Source: Schmidtea polychroa (taxonomy: Eukaryota). Taken from it: DNA of 64,000 nt. Position numbers and translations under genes: made by a program. The first letter of the stretch is position 1, and each line of letters begins with the position of its first letter. A model generated the notes under the pieces. It saw nothing but the letters and a program-made list of their open reading frames with translations. It was not told the origin of the DNA and did not search any database. The DNA is taken from assembly GCA_044892525.1 (NCBI GenBank), contig CM097885.1, forward strand, positions 16,804,001 through 16,868,000, given 5' to 3'. This document shows, in pieces, positions 23,472 through 57,169 of this stretch.

Positions 23472-23981
23472 AATTCTATAATATTAATAAGTAAATTAAC
23501 ACACTAATATTTGACAAATATTTCAATTATTCATATTATTTAAACAAAAATAAAAAGTCAAAAAATTATTAATTTTAATTAAGATATAAATTTGATTGAG
23601 CTTTAAAAATTCTAAGAAAATGCGTGATCAAAATAAAGTATAGGTTCTAAAATATGTAGTTATATATTTTATATTGATGTTTTTATTATCATTTTGGGGT
23701 CCAACTTATTTAGGACGGGCGCAAAAATTTTACCGATGTAAGGAACTAAATTATTCTTAATATATAATATTCGAATATTCGAACTATTTTTTATTAAATT
23801 GGGTCGATGAGGTAACTAATCGAAATAATTTCTATCTCAATTGGATATAAATTAGAACTTTCATTTGGCTCTCGTTACTAGGAAACTTTAGTAATTTAAT
23901 GATAGGGCCAAAAAAATGGAGAGCTTTTTTAAATGAATCGGAAACAATTTTTATGGAAACGGTACCAAGTTGAATTAAGTA

Positions 23982-35491: not shown

Positions 35492-36147
35492 GTAATAATA
35501 ATAATATAATAATAATATTAATAATAATAATATCAATAATAATATTATTGAAACTTTGTAATAATAATAATAATGATGAGATAATTGGCTCATTCGAAAG
35601 GTCTTGGATTGGGCTTTAAAATGAGCTATCGTTGAATAATTTTCGTTGGCGGAAACTCTGTAAATTGAAATTTTAAAATATGACCTTGAAAAAAAATTTG
35701 ACCTTAAAAAAATTTGTCCTTGAAAAAAATGACCTTGAAAAAATTATATTTTTAAAAATAATAATAAAATAGTCAAATGACCTTTAAAATGGTCTCGCGA
35801 AAATGTTAATAACTTTGCCAATATTAATGATGGTGATGATCACTATAGTAGTGGATGTATGGCCTTCGCGGACCCAACCCACCCTAGCCCCCAATGTCAA
35901 ACCCCTTCACATTCAGCCTAAAAAACTAAACTTTTTCATCTTTTAACCCCCTATTTCTACATCTTTTAGTCATAAAACCCTCAAATACACCAATCCAAAA
36001 CCTCACAGATCCAAGCGATCGAAGGGGGAAACATGAAATGGGTCAGCCTCCGTGAAGGCCATACATCCACTACTATAAAAACATAAAAATTTTAAATACT
36101 AGCAAATTGCGCAGTTTGCATACCCAATAAAAAATTTTTTTAAAAAA

Positions 36148-39100
36148 ATGAATATTATCAATTTTCAAATTTTGAATATGTATAATTGTAACATGTGTAA
36201 TAAAAGATTTAAAAATAGAACAGCACTAATATCACATGAAAAATCTAAAGAGCATTTATTAAAGACGGTTGGACTAAATGATTCAAACTCAAAACTTTGT
36301 CCTAAATGTAAACAAAGATATTTACTTTTAGGATATGATAAACATTTTAAAAACTGTAGTGGGATTAAAAGAAATAGAAAAAAATTTGAATGCCCTATAT
36401 GTAGATCAAAATTCACCACAGAATCTTATTATTTAAAACATTTAAAAGAATGTGCTATTGTTAAAAGAGATCCTGAAGACCTTGAAGAAGAAGATATAAA
36501 AGTTAGAGAAGAAGAAAAAGAATATGAAGAAGAAGAGATTGAAAAAGAAAAAAATAATTGGGACAACTTTAACCATGTAGATAAATTTGAACAAACATTT
36601 ATATCCTCTTCATCTTTAGAGTATATAAATAAAAATAAAAAAAACATAAAAAAATCAATGGAAGATGCTATAAAAAAATTTGGTAAATCAAGATTTAATA
36701 TTATTAAATATAAAATTAGAATCCATTCAAGATATTGGAGAGGAGAAGATATAAACACAACACTCTTGGATGCTATAATTGAAACATCTTATGATTATTT
36801 ATTCTCAACCGATGGATTTAATAAAAAAATCAAAGAGATTATTCATAAAGTTGCAGATGAGCATAGAGTGGTTGAACAAGAATTAGGAGAGTCAAACCTA
36901 AAATTCCTTTCATTTCAATCACTTGAAATTGAATATTGGAGAGGAGCACCTCCAAATCCTAAATCATATATCCCTACTCCCTTTACTTCTATTCACATAA
37001 TAAATATTCGAAATAAGGATAATAAATGTTTCCAATGGTCAATCCTTGCACACTTACATCCTCAAGAAAATCATAAAGAAAGACCTGCAAAATATAAGCA
37101 ATATGAAAATGAATTAATATATCCAAAAGGATTTAAACACCCGATGAAGATTGAATACATTCCAATTTTTGAAAAATTAAATAATATTAAACTTAGCATT
37201 TATGAATACATTTGCCAGGTGGGTGATAGGAAACATATTATTCCTATCCATGTTTCAGATAGAGAATTATCAGAACAAGATAGAAATAGAGAAATATATC
37301 TTTTAATATTACAAGAACATAAAAGAGAACAAGTCTATAAGGAATATGATGATCTGGATGAGGAAGAACAATATTTAAATATTGAAGATGATCAAGAAGA
37401 AGACCTTGAAGAGGAAGATGAGGGGAAACAACATTATATTCTAATAAAAAACTTTAAAAGCTTTATGAGATCGAAAAATCACCACAGTGGTGGAACAACA
37501 TGTAAACGGTGTTTATATTATTCAGCTTCAGACATTGCAGAATTTAAACATGAAAGATTATGTTGTAAGAACTTGCCAGCATTAATTAAAATGCCGAGTA
37601 AGGAAAAATCTAACATGCATTTTAAAAACTTTTCAAACCTATTAGAAACAATAGGAGTAATATATGGAGACTTTGAGGCAATTAACATAAAACAGGATTT
37701 AGACCAAGAATATTTAAAAATAATAGAAAAAAATAATTTATTAGACTCTTGGAACCAAAGGACTGAAGGGATCTCCATGAAAAACTTTTTAAAATTAAAT
37801 AATAAATCATACACCATAAAACTAACAAAACAGGTAGCATCAACATATAAATTATTTTTTAAAAGTAATTACCCAGACCTCATAGAATCTGAAGAATTTT
37901 CATTTAGAGGATCCTCAGAAGAAGAAACTCTAAATCATTTTACTAAAGACATAAATGATTTAGAACATAAAATTTTTAAAACTTTAAAAACAAACTTTCC
38001 AATAAATTTTCAGAACAACAATGGGAAGAATATGAAAATTGCACAACTTGCTGGATGTGCAAACGGCTATTTGAGGATCAACTCTTTGAGAATCCTGAAG
38101 GTCTTCCCGAGTCTATTGAAGAAGAAGAACAAAGATTATTTCATCAACAACAAACTCAAAACATAAAAGTTCCTGATCATGACCACTTTAAAAAAGAAAA
38201 TAATTATAGAGGAGCAGCCCATAAGAATTGTAATATAAATTGTAAAAGACCTGCATTTGTACCAGTTATATTTCACAATCTTTTTGGTTATGACATCCAC
38301 CTATTTATAAAATGTCTAGCTGTAAATGCTAAAAATTCCTTTAAAGTCATAGGTTTGACAAAAGAAAAATATAAATGTGTTCAATATGGACGACTAAAAT
38401 TTATAGATTCATTAAACTTTCTATCAATGTCCTTGGATGGAATAGCAAAAACTATGAAACCTGAAGACTTCACCCACACAATTGAAAAAGTATTAGTAAA
38501 AAATAATATTCCCCAGGAGGAATATAAAACCTGTTTGGCAAAAGGAATCTATCCTTATGATTACATCAACTCATTTGATTGTTATAATGAAACATCTTTA
38601 CCCCCTCAAGACTTGTTTTTTTCAATATTAAATCAAACGGATATAAGCGATCAAGAATATGCCCGAGGGAATAAAATGTGGGAACTTTTCAAATGTAAAA
38701 ACATTGGGGATTATACTGACATGTATTTATCCCTTGATGTTTATATCCTTGCAGATTGTTTCGAGGGATTCACAAAAGCCTTTACTCTTAAACCTTATAA
38801 TTATATAACATCTCCATCTTTAGCTTGGGATATATCATTATATACAATGTGGGCCTCTGGAACAGAGTCCATAGAACTATTAACTGAAATCGACATGTTT
38901 AATGTACTTAAAGAAAATATTCGTGGAGGTGTTAGCTCCGTGATGGGAGATAGAAATATAACTGCAAACAACTTTATATCTCTATACAAGAAATTCTTTA
39001 GTGAATATCCTGAAGCAAATGCTATAGAAATAAAAACCGATGAGGATTTAAATTTCATAATGGAAGGTTTAAATAATCCATCAGAGATTATGTATATAGA

Positions 39101-40616
39101 TGCAACAGCTTTATATTCAGGAATAATGACTCAATACCTTCCAATTGATAACTTCATTCAGGTGGATATCCCCACGGAGGCTGATCTCCTAAGAAAACTT
39201 ATGAATGAAATATTATCAACTGAAAAAGATTCAGAAGTGGGATATATAATAGAATGTGATTTAGAATATCCTAATGATATAAAATATGTAACTAGATACT
39301 TTCCATTTGCGCCAGTGAAAAGAAAAGTAGATTCTAATGAATTATCACCCCAACAAGATAGACCTACAACTGTAAAACTTTTATGTGATCAAACTGATAA
39401 AACTTGGTATCTTTGTCATTATAGATTATTACAATTTTATCTTTCACATGGAATGAAAATAAAAAATATACATTCTATAATAAAGTTTAGACAACTTCCA
39501 TTCATGAAAACCTTTATAGAGGGAAATATTAAATCTAGGAATGAAGCAAAAAGAAATGGAAACGCTTTCCTTGATATGATTTATAAACTTTTAAATAATT
39601 CAGTCTTTGGAAAGACAATGGAAAATGTTGACAAATATACTCGTGTAGAATTATTGACAAATAGTTCAAAGGATTTTGCAAGGTATAATCGAATGCTTTC
39701 AAAACCTACATTTAAAAATGCAGAAGTATTCTCAGAGAACCTTGTAGCCGTTGAACTAAAAAATAGTGAAAAGACTTATAACAAACCAATCTTTATAGGC
39801 TTTACCATTTTAGAATTATCAAAACTTCAAATGTATGAAACCTATTATGATATTCTACTACCACATTTTAAAAATAGAATATCTATGCATGCATTGGATA
39901 CCGACAGTATGTTTTTAAAAATATATACTAAAAACCTAAAAGAGGAAATATCTGAAAATGAAATCCTAAGGAATTAAATAAATTCATCAGGAGAATTATT
40001 CACCTTTAAAGATGAAAAGCCAAATACAGCAATAATTGATGCTGTCTTTATTAGATCTAAACAATATTCACTAGAAATGATTGAAGCCCCAAAGATTGAA
40101 ACCCATTCAATTAAAATCATGGATCAAACATTTGATATACCAGTATTAATACCTTCAAAACTTAAAACATCTAAAGATAATAAAAATAAAGGTATACAGA
40201 AATCAGTTTCTAGAACTATACCCCATCAAGACTATAAGGATATTCTAAATAAAAATCAACCAGATAAAATAGTTGAGGTTCATCAACTTAAATCTGAAAA
40301 GCATAACATGTATTTATAAGAATCAAATAAAATATCATTATCTAATTATGATGATAAGAGGTATATTTTATCAGATTTAAAAAAGACACTTCCAATTGGA
40401 AATGATATGATTCCTCATATAAAAAATTTAAAGAACATTTCAGATCTTCAACTGTATGAACTTCGAATACTTTACCCTGAAAGCCGAAATAACTATTTGG
40501 AATTACATCTTGAACAAAATCCTATAAACCTAAATGATTACATCTTAGACGTTAAAACCATATCATCTTCAGTCATCAATGAAGGAAAGTCTCTGGAAGT
40601 CATTCTGAAAGCTTAA
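36148..40616 (+). pseudogene. Polinton B pPolB with three N-terminal zinc fingers and an endo-VII-like insert; frameshift ~38010, stops at 39975 and 40317
   Basis: CNMC..H..H and CPKC/CPIC fingers; IYGDFEA, DHDH...YRGAAHKNCN, FHNLFGYD, KGIYPY, YIDATALYS, KLLNNSVFGKTMEN, LDTDS, FKDE, YDDKR. Confidence 0.95.
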
Positions 40617-41044
40617 AAATGACTGAAATACCCTTAAAATCCATTTTTGAAAACTTAAAGTCTTTAACAGATGACAAAGTATTGATTGATATTATTAAAG
40701 CTTTGAATAAATTAAAAAACAAACCATCTGTTTCAATAATAAAAATTTTTTCTTTTATAGTTATAACATCTTTTTTATTTTCTCTTTTATTTTCTTTTGG
40801 TTTACCTTGGCTAAAGTCTTTCTGGCTTTAATCTCTTTATGGACTTCGTTCAACTGTTGTTTTAGATGATCTCTTTCAATCTCGATATCATTTATAATCC
40901 AAAGTAATACAGGCTCTCGAATGGCAAGTTGCACAGTGAGCAAGGCTTTATCCTCTGAAGATTTCTCATTATATTCTTTTAATGCAAGACTTGATTGCTT
41001 TTTAATAATAGGATTACTTTTTATCAAATTTAAAACACGTTCAT

Positions 41045-41491
41045 TCATTTATTAAAGCTTTTAAACATGATACTAGTTCGATCTAAAATATCTTCAACAT
41101 CTTCAGGTTCAGTTGTAGAGACTCCTGTTCCAGAGGCTAAAGGATCTTTTCTTTGACCTTCGGACCTTTTATATTTCTTAGACTTGATGCATTTATGATT
41201 TTGTTGAAGTACATTAGTTGAACAATCATTACAATAAACACCCTTTTTCTCTATAACCCTCTTCTTTTTATTTGCATGCCTATAAGGAGAATCAATTCCT
41301 AAATCTTTTCTAATTCTTCTCATTGTAGAATCTGAAGTACCAATCATTTTACAAATTTGAGTTTGAGAAAAAGTAGGGTTTTCACTCTTTATTCTAGCAA
41401 ATTCAAAAGCCTTCTCTTTTTGTTGAATCTTATTTAATATTAAAGGATCAATTATTGAAAGTTGTTCAATTTTTTTTATAAAGCCATCCAT
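41045..41491 (-). CDS. Polinton B small helix-turn-helix protein
   Basis: SQTQICKMIGTSDSTMRRIRKDLG HTH-like pattern plus a CxxC..H.C cluster; part of a tightly overlapping run of minus-strand ORFs (40761-41702). Confidence 0.55.
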   Translation of the reverse strand: MDGFIKKIEQLSIIDPLILNKIQQKEKAFEFARIKSENPTFSQTQICKMIGTSDSTMRRIRKDLGIDSPYRHANKKKRVIEKKGVYCNDCSTNVLQQNHKCIKSKKYKRSEGQRKDPLASGTGVSTTEPEDVEDILDRTSIMFKSFNK

Positions 41492-41738
41492 TTATTAGTT
41501 GAGGAAATAAAGCAAAATAATATTCTCCTTTTCCAATTTGGTCTTGTATACTTAAAGATTTAAAGTCATTTATTTTATTTAAATAATCAGGGTCATTAAT
41601 TCCTACAAGATAAAATATATAACACTTTTCACCTATTCTAATTTTATCCTCTAATGATAAACTTCTAAAATCATTCAATCTAGATTTCATTATTTCTTCC
41701 ATTTTTTAAATTAAAAATTATACAGGTCTTACGAAGTC

Positions 41739-42287
41739 TTACGTCGAAGTCTTTAACCATTTCTCTTGTTGTATTTTTTTAGAATATTCATCACCTTTAA
41801 CCTTTGTAGTTTTCAACTTTATAACTTCATTTTTAATATCCCTTATTATTTGATTTGATTTCATTATTTCTTCATCTGTTAGGATTCCATCTTCCAAGGC
41901 TTTTAATTGAAATAAAAATAATTTTGATATCCCCAAGTCGATTGTCAAACAAACTTCACGATATAAACTTTTCTTTTTTGAAGTATAAGATAAAGAAAGT
42001 ATTTCAGTCAAGAAAGAATCTGCAACAGAAATACTTCCAAGTATTACGGGTGCAAGAGTAACAACTGGTAAAGTTATAGGTAAAACAATTGTAAGTATTG
42101 CAGATGAAAATCATAAGGAGTAACCTATAATCTTTAAAGCTGTATTCCCTTTATTCCATCTTTTTTTAATTTTTTTATAATGCTTCAGTAAGTCTTGTAA
42201 ATGTAAAGTTTCTGATTTAAATTCTTTCACTCTCATGACTTCAAGTTCTGTAGGAGCTGATGGAATCTTTGGATATCTTGTTTCCAT
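41739..42287 (-). pseudogene. Polinton B membrane protein with a central hydrophobic hairpin; one internal stop (42111-42113)
   Basis: METRYPKIPSAPTE...ALKIIGYSL*FSSAILTIVLPITLPVVTLAPVILGSISVA...KALEDGILTDEEI read in one frame. Confidence 0.65.
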
Positions 42288-42295
42288 TTTAATAA

Positions 42296-43144
42296 TTAAA
42301 AAAATAAGACTTTATTATTTGGTACCAACGCTCGCATATCATAAGAAACTCTTTTTGAGAGAATGTCTTTATACAATTCTATCAACGCTTTACGAACTTC
42401 ATCAACATCAACCTTTTTTTCATAAAATATTAAATCTATATATTGTACAAGTGTGCTTTTAAAAATAATATTCTTACTTTTAACTTTATGTGTTTTATGT
42501 GAATCAGTTTTGTCATGCCAATGTCCATGTGGTAAATCATAACCAGTTATTATAACGTCATTCTTTTCAAACTTACTATTATAATCACATTTTACAAACC
42601 ATTTCATTGTTTCACCATCATCATTAAATAAAAAGAAATAAGGATCAATAATCTTTACAACCATAAAACAAGACCATTCTTTACTATTTGTAATTATTAA
42701 AGTTGGTTCTATAAAATGTTTATATCTATTGGGTAATAATGTATTATTCTGTTCTAATTCAGCAGCTCTTTTTCTAATAGTGTGTGTTGTGTTAATGTGT
42801 GTTGTATGAGACTCTAATTTAACAAGTCTTACATTAAATGATGTAATCATCTCATTTATTATATTATATATTGTATTAATTTTATTATCCATAAGTTGTT
42901 TATTAAGCTTGGATTCTATAGAATTACTCGATTTAGGAAACTTAAGCTTTTCATCTACATATTTTTTATTAGCTGCATCAAAATCATTAATTGGAGAAGA
43001 TAATTCTTTTATCTTGTGTCCATTTAAACTTAAATCACCCTTCATTGAATCTCCTTTTTCATTAACAAATCTTTTTTCTGTAAGAGCTATAACATCTTCA
43101 TCTTTTAATCCATCATTATATAATCCTAATTTATTATAATTCAT
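42296..43144 (-). CDS. Putative fibre/spike-like protein of Polinton B
   Basis: Intact 282 aa; GDSMKGDLSLNGHKIKELSSP..DFDAANKKYVD motif typical of trimeric fibre/adhesin shafts, then coiled coil and a beta-rich head; directly downstream of the penton. Confidence 0.6.
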   Translation of the reverse strand: MNYNKLGLYNDGLKDEDVIALTEKRFVNEKGDSMKGDLSLNGHKIKELSSPINDFDAANKKYVDEKLKFPKSSNSIESKLNKQLMDNKINTIYNIINEMITSFNVRLVKLESHTTHINTTHTIRKRAAELEQNNTLLPNRYKHFIEPTLIITNSKEWSCFMVVKIIDPYFFLFNDDGETMKWFVKCDYNSKFEKNDVIITGYDLPHGHWHDKTDSHKTHKVKSKNIIFKSTLVQYIDLIFYEKKVDVDEVRKALIELYKDILSKRVSYDMRALVPNNKVLFF

Positions 43145-43146
43145 TT

Positions 43147-43899
43147 TTATAGTAATAATCTAACTTGTTTCAAATGTAAACACAATGAAATCTTTTCTCC
43201 ATTAAAATTAATCAATTTCCCATTTTCATCAACAATTTTAAAACTAATACTCATCAAGTTTTTTCTACATAAAGGTAAATAGTTTGGAGGATTCATTCTT
43301 TCAACCATTTTATATCCAACTCGAACATTAGAAGGAAAGGAATATAAAATATTTGCATGTTTACCATTATTATATGAACCCGTTATACAATCACACTCTA
43401 TATTTATAGAATTTGTATTTGTTATTTGAATAATATTTTTAGATTTAATAGGTGACTCACCACTATTATATTTTTTAACTTCAAAACCTAAAATAGTATG
43501 AAAGAAACTAGAAGCTTCAATATTAAGTCCAATATTTTTTTTTAAAGTCATAATATATTTTGAAGTTGGAAAATCTACTTTTATTTCTATATTTCCATTT
43601 GTTTCTTTTAAAATTGTTTTAGCTAAATCCATTAATTCATATGCTCCTGGTTCAATTGTTGTACCCGTGTATACACCAAAGCCCTCCTCCTCATTATCTT
43701 GCTTCTTATATACAGTAAAGTTATTATTATTATTATTTATATTAAAAATAGTATTAAAACAGCTAAACCACAAGAGTGCTAATTCATAATTTAAATTTTG
43801 ATCTAAATTTATTGAATCTTCAAAATTTATAGTAAAATCTGATTCATTTGAATTTACTAATAAACTTCTTGAATATTTATCTGACATTATGTTTACCAT
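43147..43899 (-). CDS. Polinton B minor capsid (penton-like) protein
   Basis: IEPGAYEL, INIECDCITGSYNNG...ILYSF, YLPL...ISFKIVDENGKLINFNGEKISLCLHLK. Confidence 0.85.
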   Translation of the reverse strand: MVNIMSDKYSRSLLVNSNESDFTINFEDSINLDQNLNYELALLWFSCFNTIFNINNNNNNFTVYKKQDNEEEGFGVYTGTTIEPGAYELMDLAKTILKETNGNIEIKVDFPTSKYIMTLKKNIGLNIEASSFFHTILGFEVKKYNSGESPIKSKNIIQITNTNSINIECDCITGSYNNGKHANILYSFPSNVRVGYKMVERMNPPNYLPLCRKNLMSISFKIVDENGKLINFNGEKISLCLHLKQVRLLL

Positions 43900-43921
43900 T
43901 TTTTAAAATTATCTTCCATTT

Positions 43922-44311
43922 TTATAATAGAGGTTTTAGATCATTATAAATTTCTTGGATTATAGATTCAAAGCCCTCTCCTTTGGACACATTCAATCTA
44001 TACAAAACATATAAACTTAAAATACCACATATTTTAGTATTATTAGGTTGAACTTGTAAAGAATTAAAGGTGTAGCCTTTTTCAAGATAGTCTTCTACTT
44101 CTTTATTAGGTTTAATCCCAAAAGAATCAAAGTATATAGATTTATTATATATACAAACCCAATGAGATCCTTTTTCATTTGAATCTTGATAATTGATTAT
44201 TATATTATCCTTTAGTCCTTTCAGACTTGACAATTCATCATTCATTAATATTTTAATTTTTAAATTTAAATAATCTGCATAATCTTTTAAATCAAAATTT
44301 GTTTTTTACAT
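43922..44311 (-). pseudogene. Adenain-like cysteine maturation protease (stop at codon 2; downstream 107 aa open)
   Basis: IINYQD...GSHWVC, YFDSFG, QVQ...ICG catalytic H-D-Q-C pattern. Confidence 0.9.
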
Positions 44312-44352
44312 TTATTCCAAATGTTTTTAAAAAATCTAATATCTTCGGAGGA

Positions 44353-45168
44353 CTAGTCATTTGTATATTTATTAAATTTATCTTTTGAAATTATTCCTTG
44401 TTTAAATAAATCTTTTGAAATCTTTAAAATATCAGAATTTAAATTATTATGTCCTGCTTTTTTAGCAGCTAATAGTTTTCTCAATTCTATAAACTTAGAG
44501 ATTGGATCTATCCCCTCACCCTCTTTAACAATATAACCCCTTTCATTTTTATTTAAATAATTCTTTAAATCTTGAATATGTTTTGCTTTTGGACTACCTC
44601 TTATTAATTTTATAAAATTTAAATATTTTTCAATTTCTTTAATATCATCTGAAGGATATCCACAAATTAATCTATAAAAATCATCTGTAAATTCAAAGTC
44701 TAAATATTCATAATTATAAACATTTTGTGAATGAATATGTGATTTATTTTCTGGAGTTATATATAAAGTAAAGTTTTGTTTATTAATTGTTATAATTTGA
44801 TATCCTTCAGGATTAATATTAAATATAGGTTTAATTGTTTCACTTAAACCCTCTCTAATTTTAGGATCAACTTTAAGAGGTTTTGTTTTTAAAAACATTT
44901 CTTCTTCTTCTACACTTGAGAGTTTTCTACGTTTTCTTTGATTCCTTTAAGTTGGTCCTTCTATGGCTTTAATACTTGGATTCTCTATAGTTTTAGGCTT
45001 TATGGCTTCTATAGCTTTAATTATTGGTTGTTGTTGTTGTGTCATTTCTTCATTTGCTGTTATAGATTCACTATGTTGGGTTATATCTTTTATATCATAC
45101 TTGTCTTGTTCTGATTGTAATTTTTTTAAAAGTGCTAATCTTTCTTCATATACCATTTTATATACCAT
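44353..45168 (-). pseudogene. Polinton B uncharacterised protein (in-frame stop at 44947)
   Basis: Two track ORFs lie in the same frame; C-terminal LRKLLAAKKAGHNN...I...L...GII resembles a recurrent Polinton motif. Confidence 0.55.
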
Positions 45169-45172
45169 CAAT

Positions 45173-45730
45173 TTACCATTCTTCTTCTTCTTCTTCAGAT
45201 TCTGATTCAACAAGTTGTAAATATAAACCTTTACCATTTTTAAGTTTACAAAGGCATCCTTTCTTCAAAGATTTACACATTTTTTTAAAATCATCTTTAT
45301 CTTTTGATGATAAAGATTCAGATGTTGAAATTTGATTTTTTAAAAAATCATTTAAACCTCTGCCTTTATATGGATCAAGATAGAGACCTTTGCCCTGATA
45401 TGGATTGAGATAGAGACCTTTTCCTTTAGCTTGCCCTACCTTCATTTTCTCGATTTCAGTTTGTAGTTTTTCTTTTTCAAGGTCTGTCTTTTGAGATTCT
45501 TTAGCTTTTTGAACTGTAGTTGCAATTCCTCCAGCTATTCCAGCAGCACCTGATAAAGCAGCAATGATTGCAGGTATTAAAGCAGCTAATGGAAGAATGC
45601 CACCTTCTCTAATACGTTCTTTAACTTGTTCTTTTACATGTTTTCCAATAAAATATTTTTTACCATCAATTACTACTGATTTATTTTTATTTGAATTTAT
45701 TAATTCTTGTAAAGATTCTTCAGTTGTCAT
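45173..45730 (-). CDS. pX-like core/membrane-active precursor
   Basis: REGGILPLAALIPAIIAALSGAAGIAG resembles the adenovirus pX tail; repeated GKGLYL motifs. Confidence 0.7.
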   Translation of the reverse strand: MTTEESLQELINSNKNKSVVIDGKKYFIGKHVKEQVKERIREGGILPLAALIPAIIAALSGAAGIAGGIATTVQKAKESQKTDLEKEKLQTEIEKMKVGQAKGKGLYLNPYQGKGLYLDPYKGRGLNDFLKNQISTSESLSSKDKDDFKKMCKSLKKGCLCKLKNGKGLYLQLVESESEEEEEEW

Positions 45731-45746
45731 TTTATAATAAATAAAA

Positions 45747-46505
45747 ATGGATATTTGGAAACCAATTTTAAATCGACACAAGAGTAAATTTAATAATAAA
45801 TTATTTCCTGATAATTTTAGATTATTAATCGTTGGGTCTTCAGGATGTGGTAAGAATGTACTTCTTTTGAGAATATTACTAGAAGAAGGTTTTTTAGATT
45901 ATAATAATTTAATCTTTTATTCTACAACCATAAATCAACCAGAGTTACAACTTTTGAAATGTGGATTTGAAAATAAATTAACTAAAAAAGTTATAATTGA
46001 TATTTTTAAAAATCAACATAGATGTCCTGACGAGGTTTTTCAACCTTGTGATATGATTGATTGGTATAAGGAAAAGATTTTAGAATCAGATATTGATAAT
46101 AAAAGTGATTACATTTCTGAAAATGAACCTGAAGATGTTTTACATTGTGATTTACTTCCTAAAGATGTAAAGAATCTAGTTATATTTGATGATGTTGTCA
46201 ATATGAAAAACCAAGAGATTCAAAAGAGTTACTTTACACGAGGTCGACATAATAATTGTAATGTTATTTATATATCTCAAACCTATTATGCTTTGGATAA
46301 AAACTCTATAAGAAATAATTCTAATTGTTTTATATTTTTTAAATTAGAAAAGCGTGATAAGAATATGATTTATAGTGATTTATTTTCAAATGTTGAACCT
46401 GATAAGCAAATGTTTGATATGTTTGTTGATAATCATTGGAAAGAAAAATATAATTATATTTATTTGGATAGAGAAGAAACTGAAATATGGAAATGTTTAT
46501 TTTAG
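45747..46505 (+). CDS. Polinton B packaging ATPase
   Basis: GSSGCGKN Walker A variant, LVIFDD, FTRGRHNNCNVIYISQTY, SIRNN. Confidence 0.92.
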   Translation: MDIWKPILNRHKSKFNNKLFPDNFRLLIVGSSGCGKNVLLLRILLEEGFLDYNNLIFYSTTINQPELQLLKCGFENKLTKKVIIDIFKNQHRCPDEVFQPCDMIDWYKEKILESDIDNKSDYISENEPEDVLHCDLLPKDVKNLVIFDDVVNMKNQEIQKSYFTRGRHNNCNVIYISQTYYALDKNSIRNNSNCFIFFKLEKRDKNMIYSDLFSNVEPDKQMFDMFVDNHWKEKYNYIYLDREETEIWKCLF

Positions 46506-46516
46506 AGCTTGTCGAC

Positions 46517-47867
46517 TTAGAAATCTGTTTTCTGTAGTTCATTATTATAAAATCTACCTAATATTTTTTCATTATTTAAATCAATGATGCTATATGTTAT
46601 TGGAATTGTATAATGTATTTTATTTATAATAAAAATTTCATTTGTCCATTTTGCTGTGAATCCTTTTTCAAATTTATTTTTATATTTAAATATTCTTACT
46701 CGGTCACCAATTTTAAACTTTGGTTTTTCATTTACCACTTTAACGGTTTCAGGATTTATAAGTTTTAAAGGATTCAAGGAAGCATTTAAAGGTGTTGATT
46801 TTATAGAACTATGTACATCATTATTATATTCATTTACAATCTTTTGTAACAATTCATTGTTCCATTTTTGTTTTCCAATAGCAGTAAAATATTTCCACAT
46901 TTTATTTTTTAATGTTCTATTTAATCTTTCAACTACGACTGCTTTTCCTTCGTTTTCTGTTGAATATAATTTAATATCATTTTCATTTAAAAACTTTGTT
47001 ATAAAATTCTGTTCTTTTATCACACCATAAATATTTTGGAATTCTTTGATGTTCTTCAAATATATTTTCAAATGCTTCTGTAATTGAATATCCTGTTTTG
47101 CTTTCTAAACATCTTGCAAAAGCAAATCTTGTATATAAATCTATTACTGTTAAAATTATTTTATATTTTTCAGGGTCTGATGATTTTGTTGGCATAAAGA
47201 CTAAATCTGCAGACCATGTTTGATCTTTTTCATGTACTTGAACTTTTAAATATTTTTTATTTTTTCTAAATTCATAGTGAAATTCGTTGGCATATTTTAT
47301 TTGTGATTCTGTTGGGAATAATAAACTAGTCTTGGATGCACTCTCGAGTTGATTCTCAATCTCTGCTTGTTGAATAATCTTTTTATTAGCAACATCTTTT
47401 GCTATTCTAGGGTGTCCGGCTCCAAAGAAGATCTTACCTTTCATTGCTAATTTAACTAGAGCTCTTTGAATCTTTTCTTGGGTTGATGGGTTTTGAATAC
47501 TATTTAAATCATGTATTAAATTAACATCTGCAAGATGTCTATCCCTAAGGTCTTGAGAATAATAAGCAATATCATGTTTTAAAGCTGCTTGATCAATTCT
47601 ATTCACTGGTTCTTCTCCGGGTTTGGGATTATTATTTTCATCAAGTCTAATATCTAGACGTGTTCCTGGTCCAGTATAGTTGTGATGGAATAAATGTCTT
47701 TCACTTGGATATTTTTCAGTAGTAAAGGGTTTTAATATTGAAGATGTTTTTTTGAAGATTGTAGGTCACCACCAACTCGAGATGTATGTTTTTTTAGTTT
47801 TAACATGACTTGCTTTATGATGTTTTCTAACTTGACAATTACAAATTTCACATTTCCAATAAGACAT
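46517..47867 (-). pseudogene. Zn finger - parvovirus-type PLA2 - rve integrase gene; disrupted near 47766 and ~46990
   Basis: CEICNC...H...; NYTGPGT...PVNRIDQAALKHDIAY; WSADL, VIDLYTRFA, LWCDKRTEFYN; KAVVVERLNRTLK; FKIGDRVRI; GRFYNNELQ; no chromodomain. Confidence 0.9.
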
Positions 47868-47883
47868 TTTTAAAAGTTAAAAA

Positions 47884-49155
47884 CTATGAATCGCCTCGTA
47901 CATTTTCAATTATTGAAATCTTTCCACCATATAATTTCATTTCTATTTTCTTTTCTTCTAATATTAATGTATATATTTTTGCCTTAAAATTAGAATCCTT
48001 TGTTATATGAAGAGTAACATCAACATTATTTATAGCTAGACGATCATCTTGATCTGATACATTTATACAAAATATAGAATATAAATTTTTGAAATCTTCT
48101 AAACTTAATTGTGGTTCAACTTTAAAATCATAACATGTTTCAATATAATTTAGATATGGAAATATGTTTTCATTATTTTCAATATTAAATTCCATTCTAT
48201 TTATTGGATAATAAGAACTATTTAATTGAATTTGTATTGATTTTAAATTATCATCTCCAATCTTTTGAATAAACAAGTTGTTATTTTTTTGGAAAGATGA
48301 ATCTACTTCTTTGAATCCAATAAAGATATATCTCGGTCGGTATGCTAAATTTGCTACCTTTATAGAATATGTTGAACCCTCTGTCATACTAAATTCACTA
48401 CAGACTCTATTTAAATAATTTACATTTATAGATTTGTTGGAATTTAATCTTTTAAGGAGTTTGATTTCAGATTGAGGATTTTAAGTCCATTCAGGTATAT
48501 GTAATTCAAGTGTTGATAATTTTAATTTAGCTTTTGTATCCTTGTCTCCATAGAACAATCTTTTATCACCTTCTATTCTATTACAGGTTAATTCTATAAA
48601 AACATTATGAAGTATACGGTTATAGTTTTGAAGGAATCCAAATAAGTGTTTTAATTCAAAATAACCTTCAAATTTTTTAGATTTATAAAGTTCAACTCTT
48701 TTATAGTATCCAAAATTTACATCTAAACCATCTTTATCTAAATCCCCTTCATTAACATCAGGAATCCAACCTGTTAATTCACCATATTCATTTTTATAAT
48801 CACAACCAGTTAAAATAAAATTTAACATTGTAGAATATACTCCTGGATGTAAAACAGTTTCAATTTCTGATGATCCTAGTTTTAATCTCATGTTGGAGAA
48901 TAAATTTGGAAAGAAATTATTTTCTAGGGTTATATCTTTGTTTGCTTCAATTTCTAATTCAATTTTATAATATAATTTAGCATTACAAATATCTATTGGG
49001 TTTGATGTTTGAAGAGATTGAAAAACTATATCAGCCCTACGATTTAAGTTTGCGATAGATCCCGAGGTTGGAGAGATTTTTAAAACATCAATTTTTTTAA
49101 TTTCATGCATAAATTCTTTATTATAATCAAGATTTAATTTATTTTTATTAGCCAT
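47884..49155 (-). pseudogene. Polinton B major capsid protein (double jelly roll), frameshift ~48480
   Basis: ~420 codons; LENNFFPNLFSNMRLKLGSSEIE, LKHLFGF..Y.RIL, RPRYIFIGF, IQIQLNSSYYP, FKNLYSIFCINVS. Confidence 0.8.
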
Positions 49156-49259
49156 TTTTTATATTACTAAATTAGAAATTGCGCAGCTTGCTAGTTTTTA
49201 AGATTTAAAATTTTTAGAATTTTATAAATATAAAATTTTAAAAAATGACAAAAATCCGA

Positions 49260-49341
49260 ACCCTAATAGCGCAGTGGGAATAGACTGGCACAGTGGTTCA
49301 AATGGATAGTGGTTCAAATCCCAACTGACATTATTTTTTTT
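49260..49341 (+). ncRNA. Candidate Pol III small RNA 1 (not a foldable tRNA)
   Basis: A boxes TAGCGCAGTGG (49267) and TGGCACAGTGG (49286), B box GGTTCAAATCCC (49311), T8 terminator 49334-49341. Confidence 0.55.
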
Positions 49342-49412
49342 CAACATAAAATAATATTAAAAATTTGAAAATAATTTTGAAAATAGTGTGTGAAAAAAAA
49401 AATTATTGAAAC

Positions 49413-49506
49413 GGGTATGGTGGCGAACCGGTAATTATCGCCACCAGTCTTTCGAACACACCCCGGATCGATCCCATAATGTGCACATTTATTTCTCAGT
49501 TGTTTT
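49413..49506 (+). ncRNA. Candidate Pol III small RNA 2
   Basis: A-box-like TGGCGAACCGG (49421), B-box-like GGATCGATCCC (49465), 9-bp stem TGGTGGCGA/TCGCCACCA. Confidence 0.35.
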
Positions 49507-50077
49507 CGGACCTCTTTCGGATTCGCTTTCGAATTCATTTGTACTTTCGAGCAGCACGCTTAAAACCGAGAAGCGAATAATAAGGTGTGCTGCTATTATC
49601 AAATTGATTCTGATGTATGAGTCTGGCCAGCTTGTATATTGGAAGAGATTTGATAAACGAAAGAGGTTGAAATTGATCCGGATCAAAAAAACTGTTGAGA
49701 GGACATTGAAAAAAAAAAAACAAATACCACTGTCCCCTCAGAGCAGTTTTACTATTTCATAAATTTTTTTATTCTTCAAGGCATCAAGATTAAGATTTAA
49801 AATTTTTATAGTTTTTTATAGTAGTGGACGTAACGGACGTAACCTTTTTCCGCGGTTCCCTGTCAAGGGGATGGGGGGATTACAGATTTGGGTTGGTAAA
49901 TTAGGGGTTTTTATGAATAAAAGATGTAAAAATAAAGGGTTAAAAAGATGAAAAGGTTTAAAATTTATTAGGTTTTGAGACGGGCGTCCGAGGGTGGGTT
50001 GGGTCCGTGAAGGCCATACTACTCACTATAGCTCATTTGAAAGGCCTTGCACTAAACTTTAAAATAAGTTATCGATC

Positions 50078-53000
50078 TGGTGTGTTACAAGTAATCTAAA
50101 GTTTCCAGCGTAACCCAGAATACAATTGACAGCTGACCACTTGATACCCGTTGAGCAATCAACGTTGGTACTGTATCAAGGGTTTGAGTACTAGCAAAAA
50201 TTGAGCATGCTTAGCATACTATAATTGTCTAGTACCCACTGGGGTTCACGGACTGCCGATAGAAGGCTTATGTCCGATTTTTTTAGGTCCCCGTTACGAC
50301 AATTAACGTTATTGAAAAATCAGAAGACCCGAACGCTAACATAACAACAATTTTATTCGGATCGCACAATTCGCATCGGAGTTCATTATATCCTGGTAGA
50401 CTCCTTCGGGGTTGTCACTAGTAGTGTCGTTGAAATGGTATTTGGGCCAGACTGGCTTGTCTTATCTTAGCCTGTGCAGCATTGCCCGGCCGAATCTTTT
50501 TCCTGGGGGGAATTGAAGGTACGCACTCCTTCGGCTCGTGGAGTAATTCGCTCATAGGTCGAATCTTGGAGATTACCTCTTGATCGATGGCCTGTTGATG
50601 TATCCTGGTCTCCAGCTCCTTCACCCTCAGATGGAGAGCCCGCAACTCGACCTGGTCCTGAGCGCTCTGCAATTTTTATTTAAAAACAAAACACTTCTTC
50701 TTCATGGTACTGGCGACAATGCCATCTGGGAGCTTCTGGTATGATGTGGACGAGCTGAAAACATGCCACAGAGAACTAAATGACACCAAGGGATTTCGAA
50801 ACATTTGAATGTCAAAATATCGTAGAATTGAACTGTGGGAACCACAATGAGGATTTTGTGAGATTTAAATTGATGCAAGGATGAAATATTAAACGAAAAT
50901 GATTGAAGATAATGAGTCATCATTCCCGAAATCCAGATGACATGGTCGCTAGGTGAATTTTCATTTATCGATCTATTTTATTTATGCATTTATTTCGTGC
51001 TGATTTTCATTGGATTGAAGTGAATTGGGTCGATTTGTCCCTCATGACGATACAAGAGTAGTGGGCAGAAATGCGTACTATTCTTGGGTGAGTCGTGAGG
51101 GGTGAAGAAACTCTGTGATGAATGGTAGGGATAGAACACGATAATGACTTCATTGAGTGCGATCGATAGGATCTTTCTCCATAATTTCCATCATCAGAAC
51201 ATGAATTTCCAACAGCTTTGAAGTTAAATTGAATAGATTCCACGAGAAACATGATTTGCACTGTAATTGATAGAACATCTCGTCTTGGCATTTTTGACAA
51301 CCAGTATAGATCTGAATGATTCTTTTCTTGCGAAACATGACTGTTAGAGAATTCAGCCGGAGGTATTGTTAGCAATTGTAATTCACAAGTAGTTCCAACA
51401 CCTTTCGTAGCAAACTTCATGTTTCTGAGACATTTCCGAGAAATAAAGCATCTCGAGTGCATTAGCGACTAAACCCGTGTGTTCATCTATCTGCAGGTCC
51501 AGAGCAGACTCGGTAATCGATTCCTTGACAGGCGACTATCTCCGATAACGAGCCCATCTAGACAGAAATCTCAATATTTTCTGATAATTAACAAAAATAT
51601 TTACCGTAGTCATGAGGAAAACTGCTGTCGGCAACTTCACGAGATATCTTACTTCAGTTTTATCTTGCCCGGGAAATAACTGTAGCCTACTGATAAATAG
51701 TTTCCGAGAAAACATCCAGCGAACGGATTACTGAGTGTCTACCATTGTATAGATGAGATTGCCAATATTTATTGAGGATAAACACTGGCTGAGAAAATCT
51801 TAGACTTAGAATAAACCTCCAAAAGATAAAGCGATAAGTAACGTCAACAATTAGGGAAATCGCGCATCCAGACCATTCATCAGGCAAAAATTCTATCCGT
51901 CGTAAAAATCAAATCATGGTGAGAGGCGCAGGATAAATCATGCACAGCAGCACACGCAGACAAATTTGCCAAATCCTAGCATAGTAGGTGTGCCAGTTTC
52001 GTCATCATGTTGAGGTGAAGCAAGTTATTTCCAGCTTGCATGCACAGGATAGACGATGTTGTTACGGCATAATTAAACGTAGTTGAGATCTCCCTGACAT
52101 TTTCGACGATAATGATTATAATAATTTTATTTTCATCCCTTTCCGTGTATTATAATGTTAAGTGCGTTGAGAGAATTTTTTAACACATTTACCATATAGA
52201 ATGAATAACCATGAATAAGATACATAATGAATTAAATCAAATATAGTTAGAAGTCAGTGACGATAAAGAATAAATGCAAGAATATCTATATATGAAATTT
52301 ATGAATATAATAAAATACTGATTGTCAACCTAAAATATACATATTAGTGATAATATCGACAATGGATTTGATACTTCTCGTTTTCTTTTGGGTTGCATGA
52401 ATTTAGTTGATTGAGGGTAACTGTTGAATGGCTGCGAGGGGTTGAAATCTGTTGAATGACTGCGAGGGGTTGAAATCTGCCGAGGGTCGCAGGGGAGAAC
52501 GGCCGACGATACTACGCAAACCTTAGTTGATCTGTAAATGATACATAAACGATTGCTACCGATTTTTATAGGGATGTTTCTTTAACTTTAGATGACCGTA
52601 CCTACCAGCTCTAGAAAGGATCTTCGTCCGTGTTTTTCTTGTTCCGACAAGAATGAGGACATCAAGAAGTTACATGTCTGTATAAGGGCTTTGAAAAAAC
52701 GTATTGACCTATACGAAGGCACGTGGTTCTCCCCGCCACAGATGAAGGAAGAACGTAATAAAGTCTTGCGTCTGGAGCACTGTCGCGACAGCCTCCTCGA
52801 AGAGAGTAGATGCCAGCGGCTAACCATTAAAGCCCAATCAGAGGCACTACACAAAGTATATACCGAAGCAGAAGTCGCGAAACGCGTCCGAGAATACCCC
52901 ATTCAGGACGGGACCAACGTCTTCCCGGTCCATCACCAGGCATATGGGGCCTCAACATCGTCGACCAGCCGCCCCTTCTCGCACCAGTTCTTTCGGACAC

Positions 53001-56000
53001 TAGGCCAATGACCACTGGTCCGTCGTACCCTATCCTAGCTCCCATCCTTCTTCCTCAGAGTGTCCAGCCTTCCACAGAAGTTGCATCGTCGATCCGGAAG
53101 CGTAAGAGGCCTACGCGTTCCGAGAAAAATCAGAAGCGTCGAAACGCTATCGCGACGTTGGAAGCCTCGCTGTCAGTAGCACATTCAAAGATACAGGAAA
53201 TCACAGCTTCCCACTGGGTATTTGTGATTATGATCCGTGTCTTACTTAAACTCTATTTGTGTATTTTGTTTATGTCTATTACTTACTTGGCGAATTTAAT
53301 ATAATTTTGTCTGTGTTTAGCCTGTTGGTTTGAGATTATTATGTAGTTCATATGAGTTGAATGATCGTCTGGCAATGCAACCGACTGATAGAAGTCGTCC
53401 CCTTGGACCAGGGTCGTACCAAATTTTATGTATGAATACGGGTAAGTCCTTCTATGGCATCTTAGAACCCGAACAGCGAGTCCTAAGATAGGGGCTCACC
53501 TGTTAGCGGACTCCGACCCATGTACGCAGAACCAGAGTGTAACATCACCACGGGCACACATGCGGGAAATTGACAAGATCATCTTGGATATGCCGGGAGT
53601 GTACACTGAGCGGGTTAGAACGATTGTATCCTATTTTTAATTTTCTTCCTCCCCGGATATCCAACAATACTTTGAACCTCGCAAAATAGAGACGGGTAAA
53701 AAAAGAAAAATTGAAATCCCAAACTTTTGTTTATTTATTCCAAAATTGATTTCACAATTATATTAATTAATCGATATTTTAAATATGTTTATATTTATCT
53801 CATTTCCTTTGGCTTTTGTTATCAGTCCTTAGAGAAAATAATGCCACTCAGACCCCCAATGGGAGGGGTATTGCTATGCGTCTTGGATCTGTATCTGGTC
53901 CCTAGCAATTCCCAACCGTTGTGGTAGTGGGTGGCTCCATCGTCAGCAGTTATAACAAGTAATTTCTTTTGTAATTTTAACATGGTTTGGTTTTAGAAGT
54001 TGCAATCTATTGGATACACTGCTTTATTAGAATTGCTCAGTTAATTAATCGTTATTATGTTATGCTATGGACTAATCCTGGTGTGATTTTGTTGATTCCT
54101 GTATCAAGGTAATTTGTTAGGTGATTATAGTAATCTTGCCATCTAAATTAATTGATGAATTTACACAGTCCGAAAATGTTGACTCGTTATCGTGTCAAGG
54201 TGGTGCATATAGAATTAAATCATTTACAGAAGTGCTATAGTTTTAACAGGCAGACAATTCATTAAATAAATCAGGGGTATTTTTACCAACCCAAAATCAT
54301 CGTAGGTGTAACAGCAGGCCGAACAATTAGAATGATCCGGCGATAAGTGATATTGATAACGATCTCTATACGTGGAATTTTATTTATTGACTAATTCATG
54401 TAGAAATACTGTTGCCCTATTCGTGTGAGTTATCACGTCACTACCTGGTGTGTGTATGTGGTGTGCGACTAGTTCTACTGCATGGGGGTCAATATCGGTT
54501 AAATCAACTGGTGATAGTGTGAGGTGTTTCGGCAGCTATGAATTGATGTTTCCAGCGTGGGAGTTAGTATTCTAGTGTGCTGCTTTCATTATGCTTAGAT
54601 GTGAATTCTCATAATTCAATTCAATTGTCAAATCTGAATGTTGCTCCCTCATCAAATCGGAATTATCATATGCCCTTTTCTCAGTGCTATTTTTTAATAT
54701 TATCTGTATTTTGATTCTTGCAGGATGTTCATCCACAGGATATTTCACCCTCGCAATTGCAATGGTAGAACCTTCTATTGACAATTCGTGGAAAATCTCG
54801 ACGTTTATTGGATTCTTATTAAAATGCTTCAAAGCTTAATGGAAAAATACTTCGACACAGTTCTTAGTCTGTGTGCTTGTTGTGATAGTAGGTATTTTGT
54901 GATATCGTTTTCATGCAATAAAACTATATTCATGTGTTATTTTATAACTAAGTTATTTTTAATGGTGTTCTTAAATTATTTCTAATGTAAGACATTTACG
55001 AAGAATGGACTTAAGCTGAACTTAAGCAGTGGATGAGATAGCATTTGTGAAGTTTGATGACGAAAATTACAAGAATGACTTGGAGTGGGATTAGAGTATG
55101 CCTAATATGATGATGATAATCAGAAAAGAATTTACGAACTTTTATGTAGATTTTTCGACAAAACGGATGACCTAAATTTAGTCAAGATAGTACTAATATG
55201 ACGATTGTGTGACATCCCCAATCACTGTGCGAATTCTCTAACGAACTTTCCACCTTTTATACGATTAAACTCTAAATAAGTGTTACTTTCCCAGAATATC
55301 ACTCGTGAATTTTATGTGCATCTTCAGCGACGGACCCGTGAGGAAGCCCCCACATTTCGGCCCGAATCAGCTGCGTGATTGAAATGTTCCATACCCACCG
55401 GCTGAGCACCCGAAGGCCCCTAACACCATGGTAAGAAACATTTCAACTCCACGTTTCTCATAAATTTTAATGAAGCCATAAAATATAAGAATATAAATTA
55501 AAAAAATTATCGACTATTACTACACTATTTAAACTATCTTAACCATAGAAAATTCATTATTACTATTCATATTACGGTAAATTAAATCAAAATGAAGAGA
55601 AAGAAGTTTAATTACATTAAATTTTACTCGAAATAGGTTACATATCGAAATTTAGTTATTCATATAATAATGCTGAATAAAACTTTACAGAAATGTTTTC
55701 CAAAGGTTTTCAGTCAAAAGTTTGATCCGCGGGCTGAGTTGAATGATCGATCTACCTCGTGCTAAATTGATTGTGAAAGTGATTTATTACTAGATTGTCG
55801 TATCTCGAAATTCCTATCTGTGAATTGGCTCTCTAAATGGTTAGATTTTTTAACACTGAAATTTTGATTTCAGTGTTTGACTTATATACTAATTTCCTAT
55901 ATGTGCGGACCAATCAGAATTGAGTACCGCTTAATTATTTAATTTTGATGTTTCTTAGTTGCTTTTCTTATTTTTTCCTTATTTTTATTATATTTTTTAT

Positions 56001-56298
56001 TTATTTCTTTAATTTTCTTATTAATTACTGGGTTTTGTATTATTTTATTTATTATTGTAGTTTTTCCTTATCTTAATTTCTTATTTTTATTCTTTGTTTT
56101 AATTCTCATTTCTTAATTTATTATTTCTTTTGTATACTGAATCTTGTTTATTTTTAAATTTTTGTTTATTTTTATTTATCTATAATCATGCTTATCTTAT
56201 TTCCCTAATTTCTTGTTTCAACTCAGCCCAACACTATGTACCTACGCACCTTAGTCACAATTAGAGTTTTGGGTCTAGAAATCAGTTCTAGCCCAACA
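50078..56298. mobile_element. 6.2-kb TG...CA insertion with a 4-bp TSD; probably an LTR-retroelement derivative (giant solo LTR or non-autonomous element)
   Basis: GATC at 50074-50077 and 56299-56302; removing it restores the TIR sequence TATCGATCGATGAAAT; no gag/pol motifs seen. Confidence 0.75.
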
Positions 56299-57169
56299 GA
56301 TCGATGAAATAAAATTATGGCACTTAATAATATTTTTGAAAAATAATAATAAAAATAATATTTTTTGAAAAATAATAATATGACCTTGATAAGTCATCGC
56401 AATGAGTCATATTACCTTGGGAATGATCCTGGATGAGTCATGCGACCTTGAAAATGACCTTGATGAGTCATTGTTTAAACGATCTTGAAAAAAATTTGAC
56501 CTTGATAAGTCATGGTCGTTGTTTAAATTACCTTGAAAAGTTTGATGAGTCATCGAATGAGCCATGGGCTTTGTTTCAATGACCTTGATGAGTTATATGT
56601 CTTTGTTTAAAATTTGACATTGAAAATTTTCTACCGGGGGGGGTGTGCTAGCGGTGCCCAATCCATCTACTAGCAGGGAATCAAGTTTTCAAATCATAAA
56701 GACGAGCACATCATCAGAAAATGAATTTTGACGTTCACCAAAGCAATAATCCGCTTCACAGACAAAGTACAGAACAAATATTGAGATACGGTAAATGTAT
56801 TGTTTATGATGGAAACGCAAACAGCATTGAGGGACACGTATTTTTCTATCATCCAATCTCTCACAGCCGAAGAACAGTATGAACAATAAAGTGAAAAAAG
56901 AGGCCAGTGGGGAGCAAGACATCAACTAGATAAAATAACGCCAAAAAAACCAAAAGTGACAAAGACAAGAACAATAGATGAAGATCAAGCAATAATAATA
57001 CGAAAGGCAAGAGAAAGCATTTATCCTTAGATCAACCGAGATAAAGGTTTTTTCTGTTAGTCCTCGTCTTAAGTGTTTGCTTAATATAAATAATCGTTCA
57101 GGTAAAACAAATTTTAAAATTTAGTTTATGAATAAATCGTTTCATAGACCCAATGGCTTGTTATTAAAT

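Follow-up and report, generated by a model that had tools for sequence, protein, structure and literature searches.

Adenoviruses are related to Polintons, and foamy viruses carry Pol III pre-miRNA clusters. PKR, the main target of the adenoviral VA-I RNA, is a vertebrate protein. In the published text available, VA-I is described as a wobble-rich dsRNA decoy, whose apical stem of ~20 bp is stacked on a GGGU/ACCC tetrastem (PMC6599070). The TMERs of murine gammaherpesvirus 68 are viral units arranged in clusters, with internal Pol III promoters of type 2 (PMC3482243, PMC8223928), in which Pol III tRNA-like heads, cut by RNase Z, are followed by downstream hairpins (PMC3482243). Similarly, bovine leukemia virus (BLV) is reported to have a Pol III pre-miRNA cluster of type-2 units (PMC12498455). 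In a planarian, Polintons themselves are described as subject to nuclear PIWI silencing (PMC8532177). In the literature searched, to the extent of its available text, there was no report of a Polinton with a structured RNA or one made by Pol III, and supplementary small-RNA catalogues could already list the hairpin described below. The available text of the adintovirus paper (PMC8502044) does not contain "non-coding", "noncoding" or "microRNA", and mentions "tRNA" in one passage, a legend dealing with viruses whose hosts are not animals.

The cassette described here lies at the end of a Polinton and contains two units of tRNA-promoter geometry, unit 1 and unit 2, the second of which continues into a predicted multi-arm fold. 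As far as the available descriptions allow comparison, and on its predicted fold, unit 2 shares with VA RNA I and II an intragenic promoter of type 2, long helices rich in wobble pairs, and a Polinton-related virus lineage. In a fuller copy of the cassette (L091), the head hairpin has a predicted GGGU/ACCC pairing at its base; however, the stem above it has 8 bp, whereas VA-I, as described, needs ~20. In addition, the predicted unit-2 RNA has ~340 nt against ~160 nt for VA, its 5' and 3' ends do not form a terminal stem with each other, and the cassette is terminal in its element whereas VA genes are internal. The Rfam VA model gave no match to the block at E up to 10 or 1.

Like the TMERs in the published portions consulted, unit 2 has a type-2 promoter head of tRNA geometry directly upstream of predicted hairpins. 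In contrast, the TMER head has a tRNA-like fold, whereas no cloverleaf was found in unit 2, whose B box is predicted to be engaged in pairs with the distal 3' portion; moreover, the TMER carries one or two free pre-miRNA hairpins while the body of unit 2 is a branched 220-nt domain. No TMER sequence match for the cassette was found in Rfam. With BLV and with the foamy viruses, the cassette has in common an integrating element with Pol III type-2 units and pre-miRNA-sized hairpins, but its own 61-nt hairpin is predicted to be embedded in a larger fold. The tRNA-derived A/B-box head also recalls tRNA-derived SINEs and TFIIIC barriers, and unit 1 resembles pseudo-tRNA units of the rDNA spacer; unlike a SINE, the cassette has no solo copies among 30 consecutive sites and no target duplication or tail, and it moves only with the DNA element. 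Finally, the host 7SL RNA is of similar length and Pol III type and has extended helices, but no homology. A 7SL (SRP) origin of unit 2 was rejected, with a local score of 25 against 22.8 +/- 3.3 for shuffles. The best reading of these comparisons is that the cassette may work like the VA and TMER RNAs, yet it belongs to neither family as tested.

A terminal cassette of family-B Polintons

The window, that is, the whole 64-kb stretch of DNA analysed (G000:C1:16804001-16868000), comes from a 781-Mb AT-rich animal assembly. It contains element B (35847-50023), a Polinton/adintovirus-like element with AGTAGT...ACTACT ends, which is itself nested in another Polinton, element A, within the right terminal repeat of the latter. 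Element B encodes PolB, an integrase, a PLA2-like domain, a packaging ATPase, a protein X-like peptide and a double-jelly-roll (DJR) capsid, with Pfam matches to DNA_pol_B_2, Pox_A32 and DJR-like, and rve below cut-off (E 4e-7). It is flanked by a 6-bp target duplication, CACTAT (35841-35846 and 50024-50029), and the combination of PolB, integrase, ATPase, capsid, terminal inverted repeats and 6-bp target duplication identifies it as a Polinton/adintovirus. The major capsid gene (DJR-like, PF21738; 47884-49155, minus strand) is broken by a stop in this copy; its ATG, at 49155, faces away from the cassette, and the block of interest is located between this ATG and the right terminal repeat. This repeat, with the 19-bp motif on its inner side, occupies 49790-50023 and ends in ACTACT at 50023. 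Compared with most other copies, the block has a deletion of ~50-77 bp near 49395, which the initial annotation did not mention.

Some further features of the surroundings were recorded. The family-B terminal repeats (35847-36074 and 49820-50023 in the window) are each an inverted block, AGTAGT...ACTACT, with paired arms of 20-25 bp and a variable middle, and family-B sub-lineages have unrelated terminal blocks beside near-identical capsid genes. Beyond element B, a GC-richer insert of ~6 kb (50078-56320) splits the right terminal repeat of element A. An intronless adenylate-kinase-like (AAA_18) open reading frame at 22950-23471, on the minus strand and with a partial duplicate near 23975, is possibly a host gene or a retrocopy.

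The initial annotation described the block as bracketed by a 19-bp direct repeat. The 19-mer TTAAGATTTAAAATTTTTA is indeed found exactly at 49198 and 49790, with no third site in the window, but it does not bracket the cassette as such: the motif is present on both sides in 6 of 116 copies, its upstream occurrence starts ~45 nt ahead of unit 1, and a copy that lacks the cassette (L143) has it a single time. The upstream occurrence (49198-49216, plus strand) is an incidental duplicate of the AT-rich inner-terminal motif (49790-49808), which was likely doubled by recombination.

Across the genome, a unit-1 21-mer has 1523 exact matches and a unit-2 hairpin 20-mer has 2631, against 0 for controls, and many of these matches form inverted pairs ~13 kb apart. 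Forty unit-1 sites, taken as stretches around the matches listed in the first 16 Mb of contig 1, were inspected for neighbouring genes; 39 have a Polinton gene within 1.5 kb (capsid or PolB upstream in 38, integrase plus ATPase in one) and one has none. All of the first 30 consecutive hairpin sites (of 2631), which overlap the 40 unit-1 loci, have unit 1 upstream; capsid or PolB lies within 1.5 kb of 25, and the remaining five are broken ends retaining a whole or partial terminal repeat. When distinct copies were selected by their capsid instead (n = 39), 32 had both units and the core, six had none of them, and one had spacer-type units only. The family-B cassette occupies the space that separates the outermost gene (capsid or PolB) from the terminal repeat. 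It points outward and is found at one or both ends, while some sub-lineages lack it. These three surveys therefore define an optional, outward-pointing terminal module of family B rather than a SINE, and the cassette is intrinsic to the Polinton family. According to the initial annotation, a host SINE or tRNA pseudogene, found outside Polintons and missing from other B copies, would have spoken against its proposal; the opposite was observed, since 30 of 30 sites are at Polinton ends and 32 of 39 copies carry the cassette.

The left end of element B has no cassette, and a look at 16 stretches around eight sampled family-A elements revealed no units. Because these eight elements, this left end and six of the 39 capsid-selected copies are all without it, the cassette is not needed for spreading. 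Among viral contigs, searched both by capsid and by DNA pattern, there were no related loci; similarly, 18 metagenome loci with capsids 31-53% identical contained no units, although their gene order differs and most stop short of the element end. A search for other capsid families in this genome returned only that of family B. Two cassette-less copies (L128, L134) have an apparent reading frame upstream of the capsid in the place of the cassette. In another copy, an 89-codon open reading frame (L085:1983-2252, plus strand), charged, coiled-coil-like and without Pfam match, fills one array period between a Cys-like unit and unit 1, as it does in many copies.

Unit 1 and similar units in the host genome

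Unit 1 (49260-49341, plus strand) has an A box, TAGCGCAGTGG, at 49267-49277, a B box, GGTTCAAATCC, at 49311-49321, 44 nt from the A-box start, and a T8 run at 49334-49341. A second A-like box at 49286-49296 and an extra B-like box derive from an internal 16-bp duplication of variable copy number. No other A-B-T unit was found by a box scan across the 64-kb window, and dinucleotide shuffles of the block, scanned on both strands, gave a strict unit in 0 of 5000 and a relaxed one in 2 of 1000. The consensus A boxes, B box at tRNA-like spacing and T8 run described for this unit were thereby confirmed.

Conservation was measured in 106 unique copies. The B core is nearly invariant, with a minor-letter fraction of 0.003 against 0.14-0.16 in the 5' flank and in the segment preceding the T run; the A box varies chiefly at the purine position, and the T run is of at least 7 in 100 copies. 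The AT-rich stretch behind the T run is likewise conserved (minor-letter fraction 0.018). A lack of box conservation had been named in advance as an outcome that would count against the proposal, and boxes, spacing and T run were all found to be conserved.

The structure of unit 1 is a different matter. Its fold is close to that of shuffles (z -0.6), and the possible terminal stem, CAGT-GGGA/TCCCAACTG, although present in this copy, has all 8 pairs intact in only 18 of the 106 copies and shows zero compensating changes; as a conserved RNA structure, this stem was rejected. The absence of a cloverleaf, already noted in the initial annotation, was corroborated: ARAGORN found no tRNA in the window and none in 30 of 30 related loci. 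In the tRNA register, unit 1 forms 3 of 7 acceptor pairs and 2 of 5 T-stem pairs, and the pairing found for a tRNA gene cloverleaf (acceptor 3/7 and 5/7, T stem 2/5) was incomplete. The conservation of unit 1 is that of a promoter rather than of a structure, and the idea that unit 1 is the VA-like RNA is not supported, in view of its fold and its unconserved stem. Unit 1 would instead work as DNA, as a TFIIIC/TFIIIB loading or barrier site, and would give at most an unstructured transcript of ~80 nt. The insulator reading may hold for unit 1, which has its look-alikes in the spacer of the host rDNA.

These look-alikes are known from fuller copies of the cassette, in which two further units of the same geometry follow one another in steps of ~240 bp (230-250). 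One of the two is derived from tRNA-Cys (Rfam tRNA model, 26.7 bits for a cut-off of 29; 1 of 5000 shuffles when compared with the host gene). Both extra units are also found in the host rDNA spacer at C1:12488-13283, between 18S and 28S and on the strand opposite to the rRNA. In this spacer, the one examined, neither unit 1 nor unit 2 is present. Unit 1 matches the two spacer-type units at 47-50 of 74 nt, versus 27-37 for three host tRNAs. A native array of four units was considered and had to be cut back, two of its units being present in the host rDNA spacer too. The simpler reading, from sequence comparison, is that the spacer-type units were captured by the Polinton from the rDNA spacer.

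The pseudo-tRNA A/B-box units of the host intergenic spacer (L248:2251-3283, equivalent to G000:C1:12251-13283) stand in a row, repeating every ~243 bp and oriented against rRNA transcription. Many Polinton ends have units nearly identical to two of them, and one more unit is located at L248:2251. Elsewhere on this contig (L080, L250; G000:C1:140001-167200), a 1244-bp tandem repeat carries in each period a diverged tRNA-Cys-like A/B unit with ~230 bp of spacer-type flank. Host tRNA and 7SL genes also occur in long tandem arrays, with periods of 281, 424, 278, 593 and 398 bp (L071, L094, L117, L124 and L244), and the tRNA-Cys and tRNA-Asp patterns have 1005 and 1727 genome matches.

Unit 2 and its predicted structured extension

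The head of unit 2 (49414-49487, plus strand) has an A-like box at 49421-49431, set in a hairpin of 8-9 bp, and a B-like box, GGATCGATCCC, at 49465-49475, which has an A where the consensus has T; the A-B spacing is 44 nt, as in unit 1. Both units have the arrangement of a type-2 Pol III internal promoter, with consensus boxes in unit 1 and a non-consensus B box in unit 2, and a box spacing of 43-44 nt is kept among copies. The weaker boxes and perfect 9-bp hairpin attributed to unit 2 were recovered in this copy (hairpin 49418-49446), and the outer pair of the hairpin is T-T in 37 of 99 copies. The head bears a weak likeness to host tRNA-Asp(GTC), equalled by 18 of 5000 shuffles for one variant and 132 of 5000 for this copy, several units and tRNAs having been tried.

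Overlooked in the initial annotation was a multi-arm fold of ~340 nt that continues unit 2 (49414-49750). The segment 49409-49775 is predicted to fold at -113.5 kcal/mol with a z of -7.1, against -3.2 for the opposite strand, and in the fuller copy L091 the z is -9.3; 0 of 100 shuffles were as good as these folds. In random copies, the plus strand had the lower energy in 6/6 and the lower z in 5/6, and the best plus-strand 200-nt folding windows of element B are in the unit-2 region. The predicted structure, on the plus strand throughout, comprises a closed multi-arm domain (49463-49681), with a closing stem (49463-49472/49672-49681), a trunk (49505-49518/49659-49671) and, as side arms, a small hairpin (49519-49536) and an arm (49550-49594). 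It also includes a 61-nt hairpin (49596-49656) with 25 pairs, 8 of them G-U, a 2x2 internal loop and a 7-nt loop, which fits the 60-70 nt and the ~22-nt duplex expected of a microRNA-gene hairpin. A terminal hairpin (49688-49750) follows, ending in T4, whose loop contains an A-run of 8-27 nt among copies. RNAalifold on 40 copies gave the same helices as the single-copy fold.

Variation among copies was then compared with this structure, which was derived from the window copy itself. Among the recurrent variant types (seen in at least 2 of 99 unique copies), 20 of 33 keep the pair, whereas 28% would be expected (p 8e-5; the copies are close kin and the statistic ignores kinship). Among singletons the figure is 17 of 58 (p 0.44). 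Recurrent variants likely arose in replicating elements, and singletons after insertion. Protection differs between helices: 8 of 9 recurrent variants keep the pair in the 61-nt hairpin, while 3 of 7 recurrent changes break pairing in the closing stem and 5 of 6 do so in the head (A-box) hairpin, the least protected helix. In 40 copies, 99.2% of the cells are paired, versus 41-45% with slid partners. The single compensatory pair, A-U to G-C in 11 of 40 copies, is in the terminal hairpin, is mismatched in the window copy, and possibly reflects one event. Contigs from runs labelled as another organism contain a diverged block, with 12-17 differences per 100-110 nt, and a capsid piece differs at 33 of ~196; among the 15 differences listed, eight fall on pairs and seven of these keep the pair, partner letters being assumed unchanged. 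By these comparisons, the unit-2 region is under selection for pairing. As to conservation and covariation across copies, suggested as a check of the original idea, boxes are kept, and unit-2 pairs are kept by recurrent variants, but there is only one compensatory pair and the unit-1 stem is not conserved.

Since the boxes are followed by a strongly folding, pair-keeping sequence of ~340 bases, a Pol III transcript is likely, and unit 2 is likely a Pol III structured-RNA gene. In the proposed mechanism, TFIIIC would bind the internal A and B boxes of unit 2 and Pol III would start near 49412. An internal T4 at 49503-49506, 90 nt in, is a candidate leaky stop, and a T7 at 49764-49770 is the candidate final terminator. 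Four host Pol III genes that were examined end in T7, T6, T5 and T4, the tRNA-Cys gene having T4 runs only, so that T4 may stop Pol III in this host. In human cells, according to the available text, one internal T4 about halved the output of a Pol III reporter (PMC8223928). Short and long RNA forms are therefore expected: part of the transcripts would stop at the T4 at 49503 (~90 nt), and the rest would reach the T4/T7 at 49747-49770. The long form would bind or feed Dicer/Argonaute-type machinery, by analogy with VA RNAs and TMERs; this is the weakest step of the scheme, and we regard it as somewhat doubtful. The VA-like candidate, on the predicted fold, is the ~340-nt structured extension of unit 2 and not unit 1.

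The Pol III signals also bear on an unlikely competitor, in which the fold would be part of an outward Pol II transcript, started at a two-way promoter beside capsid/PolB, with the A/B boxes as relics or DNA sites. At least one internal T4 is present in the unit-2 body in 109 of 111 copies, which counts against Pol III and would suit Pol II; the same applies to the non-consensus B box, and the A-run of 8-27 nt in the last loop and the poor protection of the head hairpin would also suit Pol II. However, the 43-44-nt box spacing is kept, the body is free of T5 or longer runs in 105 of 111 copies although the AT-rich spacers of the element abound in T runs, and the cassette closes with a hairpin and T runs, a T5 or longer being present within 30 nt behind the body in 107 of 111 copies.

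A search of Rfam with the block gave nothing at gathering score, mir-15 and others being at chance level. Contigs from seven runs guessed to be RNA (none is on record as RNA), selected for containing the block, fall mostly on 49465-49734, and a 294-nt contig spans 49467-49724; contig depth cannot rank the parts of the block in such runs, so this pattern is given no weight. Among the rows listed, contigs from two studies begin at 49465-49467, a position for which no RNA end is claimed. In one run, whose kind is not stated, contigs cover the capsid gene and the block about evenly.

Competing readings and the meaning of the cassette

Together, we consider it reasonably probable, with moderate confidence, that the family-B cassette is an optional module in which unit 2 is a gene read by host Pol III, giving an RNA of ~340-360 nt with a predicted G-U-rich multi-arm fold; this RNA would counter small-RNA silencing by the host, either as a double-stranded-RNA decoy or as a substrate for Dicer. 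In its action, this RNA may resemble the anti-defence RNAs of adenoviruses and herpesviruses. Of the VA-like small-RNA system initially proposed for a Polinton, the conserved boxes, spacing and T run and the element-intrinsic nature of the cassette are upheld; unit 1 as its RNA is not, and the candidate has moved to the unit-2 extension.

It is quite improbable that the cassette as a whole is a TFIIIC barrier array, which shields the promoters of the element from host heterochromatin and makes RNA as a by-product. This idea accounts for conserved unit-1 boxes without a conserved fold, for the resemblance of unit 1 (47-50 of 74 nt) to two units also present in the rDNA spacer, opposite to the rRNA genes, for the repetition of units at ~230-250 bp, and for the location of the cassette between promoter and host DNA; in addition, Polintons are nuclear PIWI targets in a planarian, in the text available (PMC8532177). 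Yet a strand-specific 340-nt fold with pair-keeping variants would be superfluous for a barrier, which may thus hold for unit 1 alone.

Alternatively, it may be as single-stranded DNA that the hairpins act, while the element is replicated by strand displacement, integrated or packaged. The subterminal position at either end would fit such a role, the plus strand of unit 2 folds as DNA as well (z -5.5), and pair-keeping variants cannot separate RNA from one DNA strand. G-U/G-T pairs are, however, more typical of RNA, and they make up 16 of the 98 majority pairs of the unit-2 fold; moreover, the cassette is optional, opens with Pol III boxes and closes with T runs. We give the single-stranded DNA reading a low probability.

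A host SINE or tRNA-pseudogene insertion, with the 19-bp repeat as target duplication, is largely refuted and very improbable. The tRNA-like heads, the exact repeat in this copy and the two other units common to the element and the host rDNA spacer first gave it some appeal, but of the hallmarks of a SINE (dispersed solo copies, target duplications, tail), no solo or free-standing copy was seen in 30 consecutive sites (30 of 2631 classified), the repeat is on both sides in 6 of 116 copies only and begins ~45 nt ahead of unit 1, and units 1 and 2 are absent from the one spacer examined.

Least credible of all, and rejected, is a small protein: a plus-strand frame (49394-49762, 122 codons) is open in this copy, and an ATG stands ahead of it in most other copies, but in 84 of 117 copies a stop cuts it off short of 20 codons and in six it extends to 120, net indels fall in all three frames, there is no Pfam match, and the ~55-codon minus-strand frame shifts register beyond residue ~22-27 from one common variant to another. 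With frames broken and indels in all three, the block is non-coding, as it had first appeared.

To return to the Pol III gene of unit 2, a structured-RNA gene of this kind is likely new for Polintons as far as searched. Annotation of Polintons is almost wholly protein-based, and the literature searched, in its available text, describes no non-coding gene that is under selection in them. If the RNA is made, it would be a second, independent case of a Pol III structured RNA in the lineage that includes adenoviruses, and it would allow a direct test of a large DNA element against small-RNA silencing in an animal with ~2600 copies of the gene. The comparison would be easy, since one genome holds sub-lineages with and without the cassette. 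A bolder proposal, possible but rather unlikely in our judgement, is that Polintons encode their own VA-like counter-silencing RNA: abundant, transcribed by Pol III from a captured tRNA promoter and flanked by barrier units borrowed from the rDNA spacer, it would decoy or feed Dicer/PIWI and would have aided the spread to thousands of copies. If true, the Polinton-adenovirus lineage would have its first non-coding effector from outside the adenoviruses themselves, which would suggest that the VA strategy is older than adenoviruses or has arisen repeatedly.
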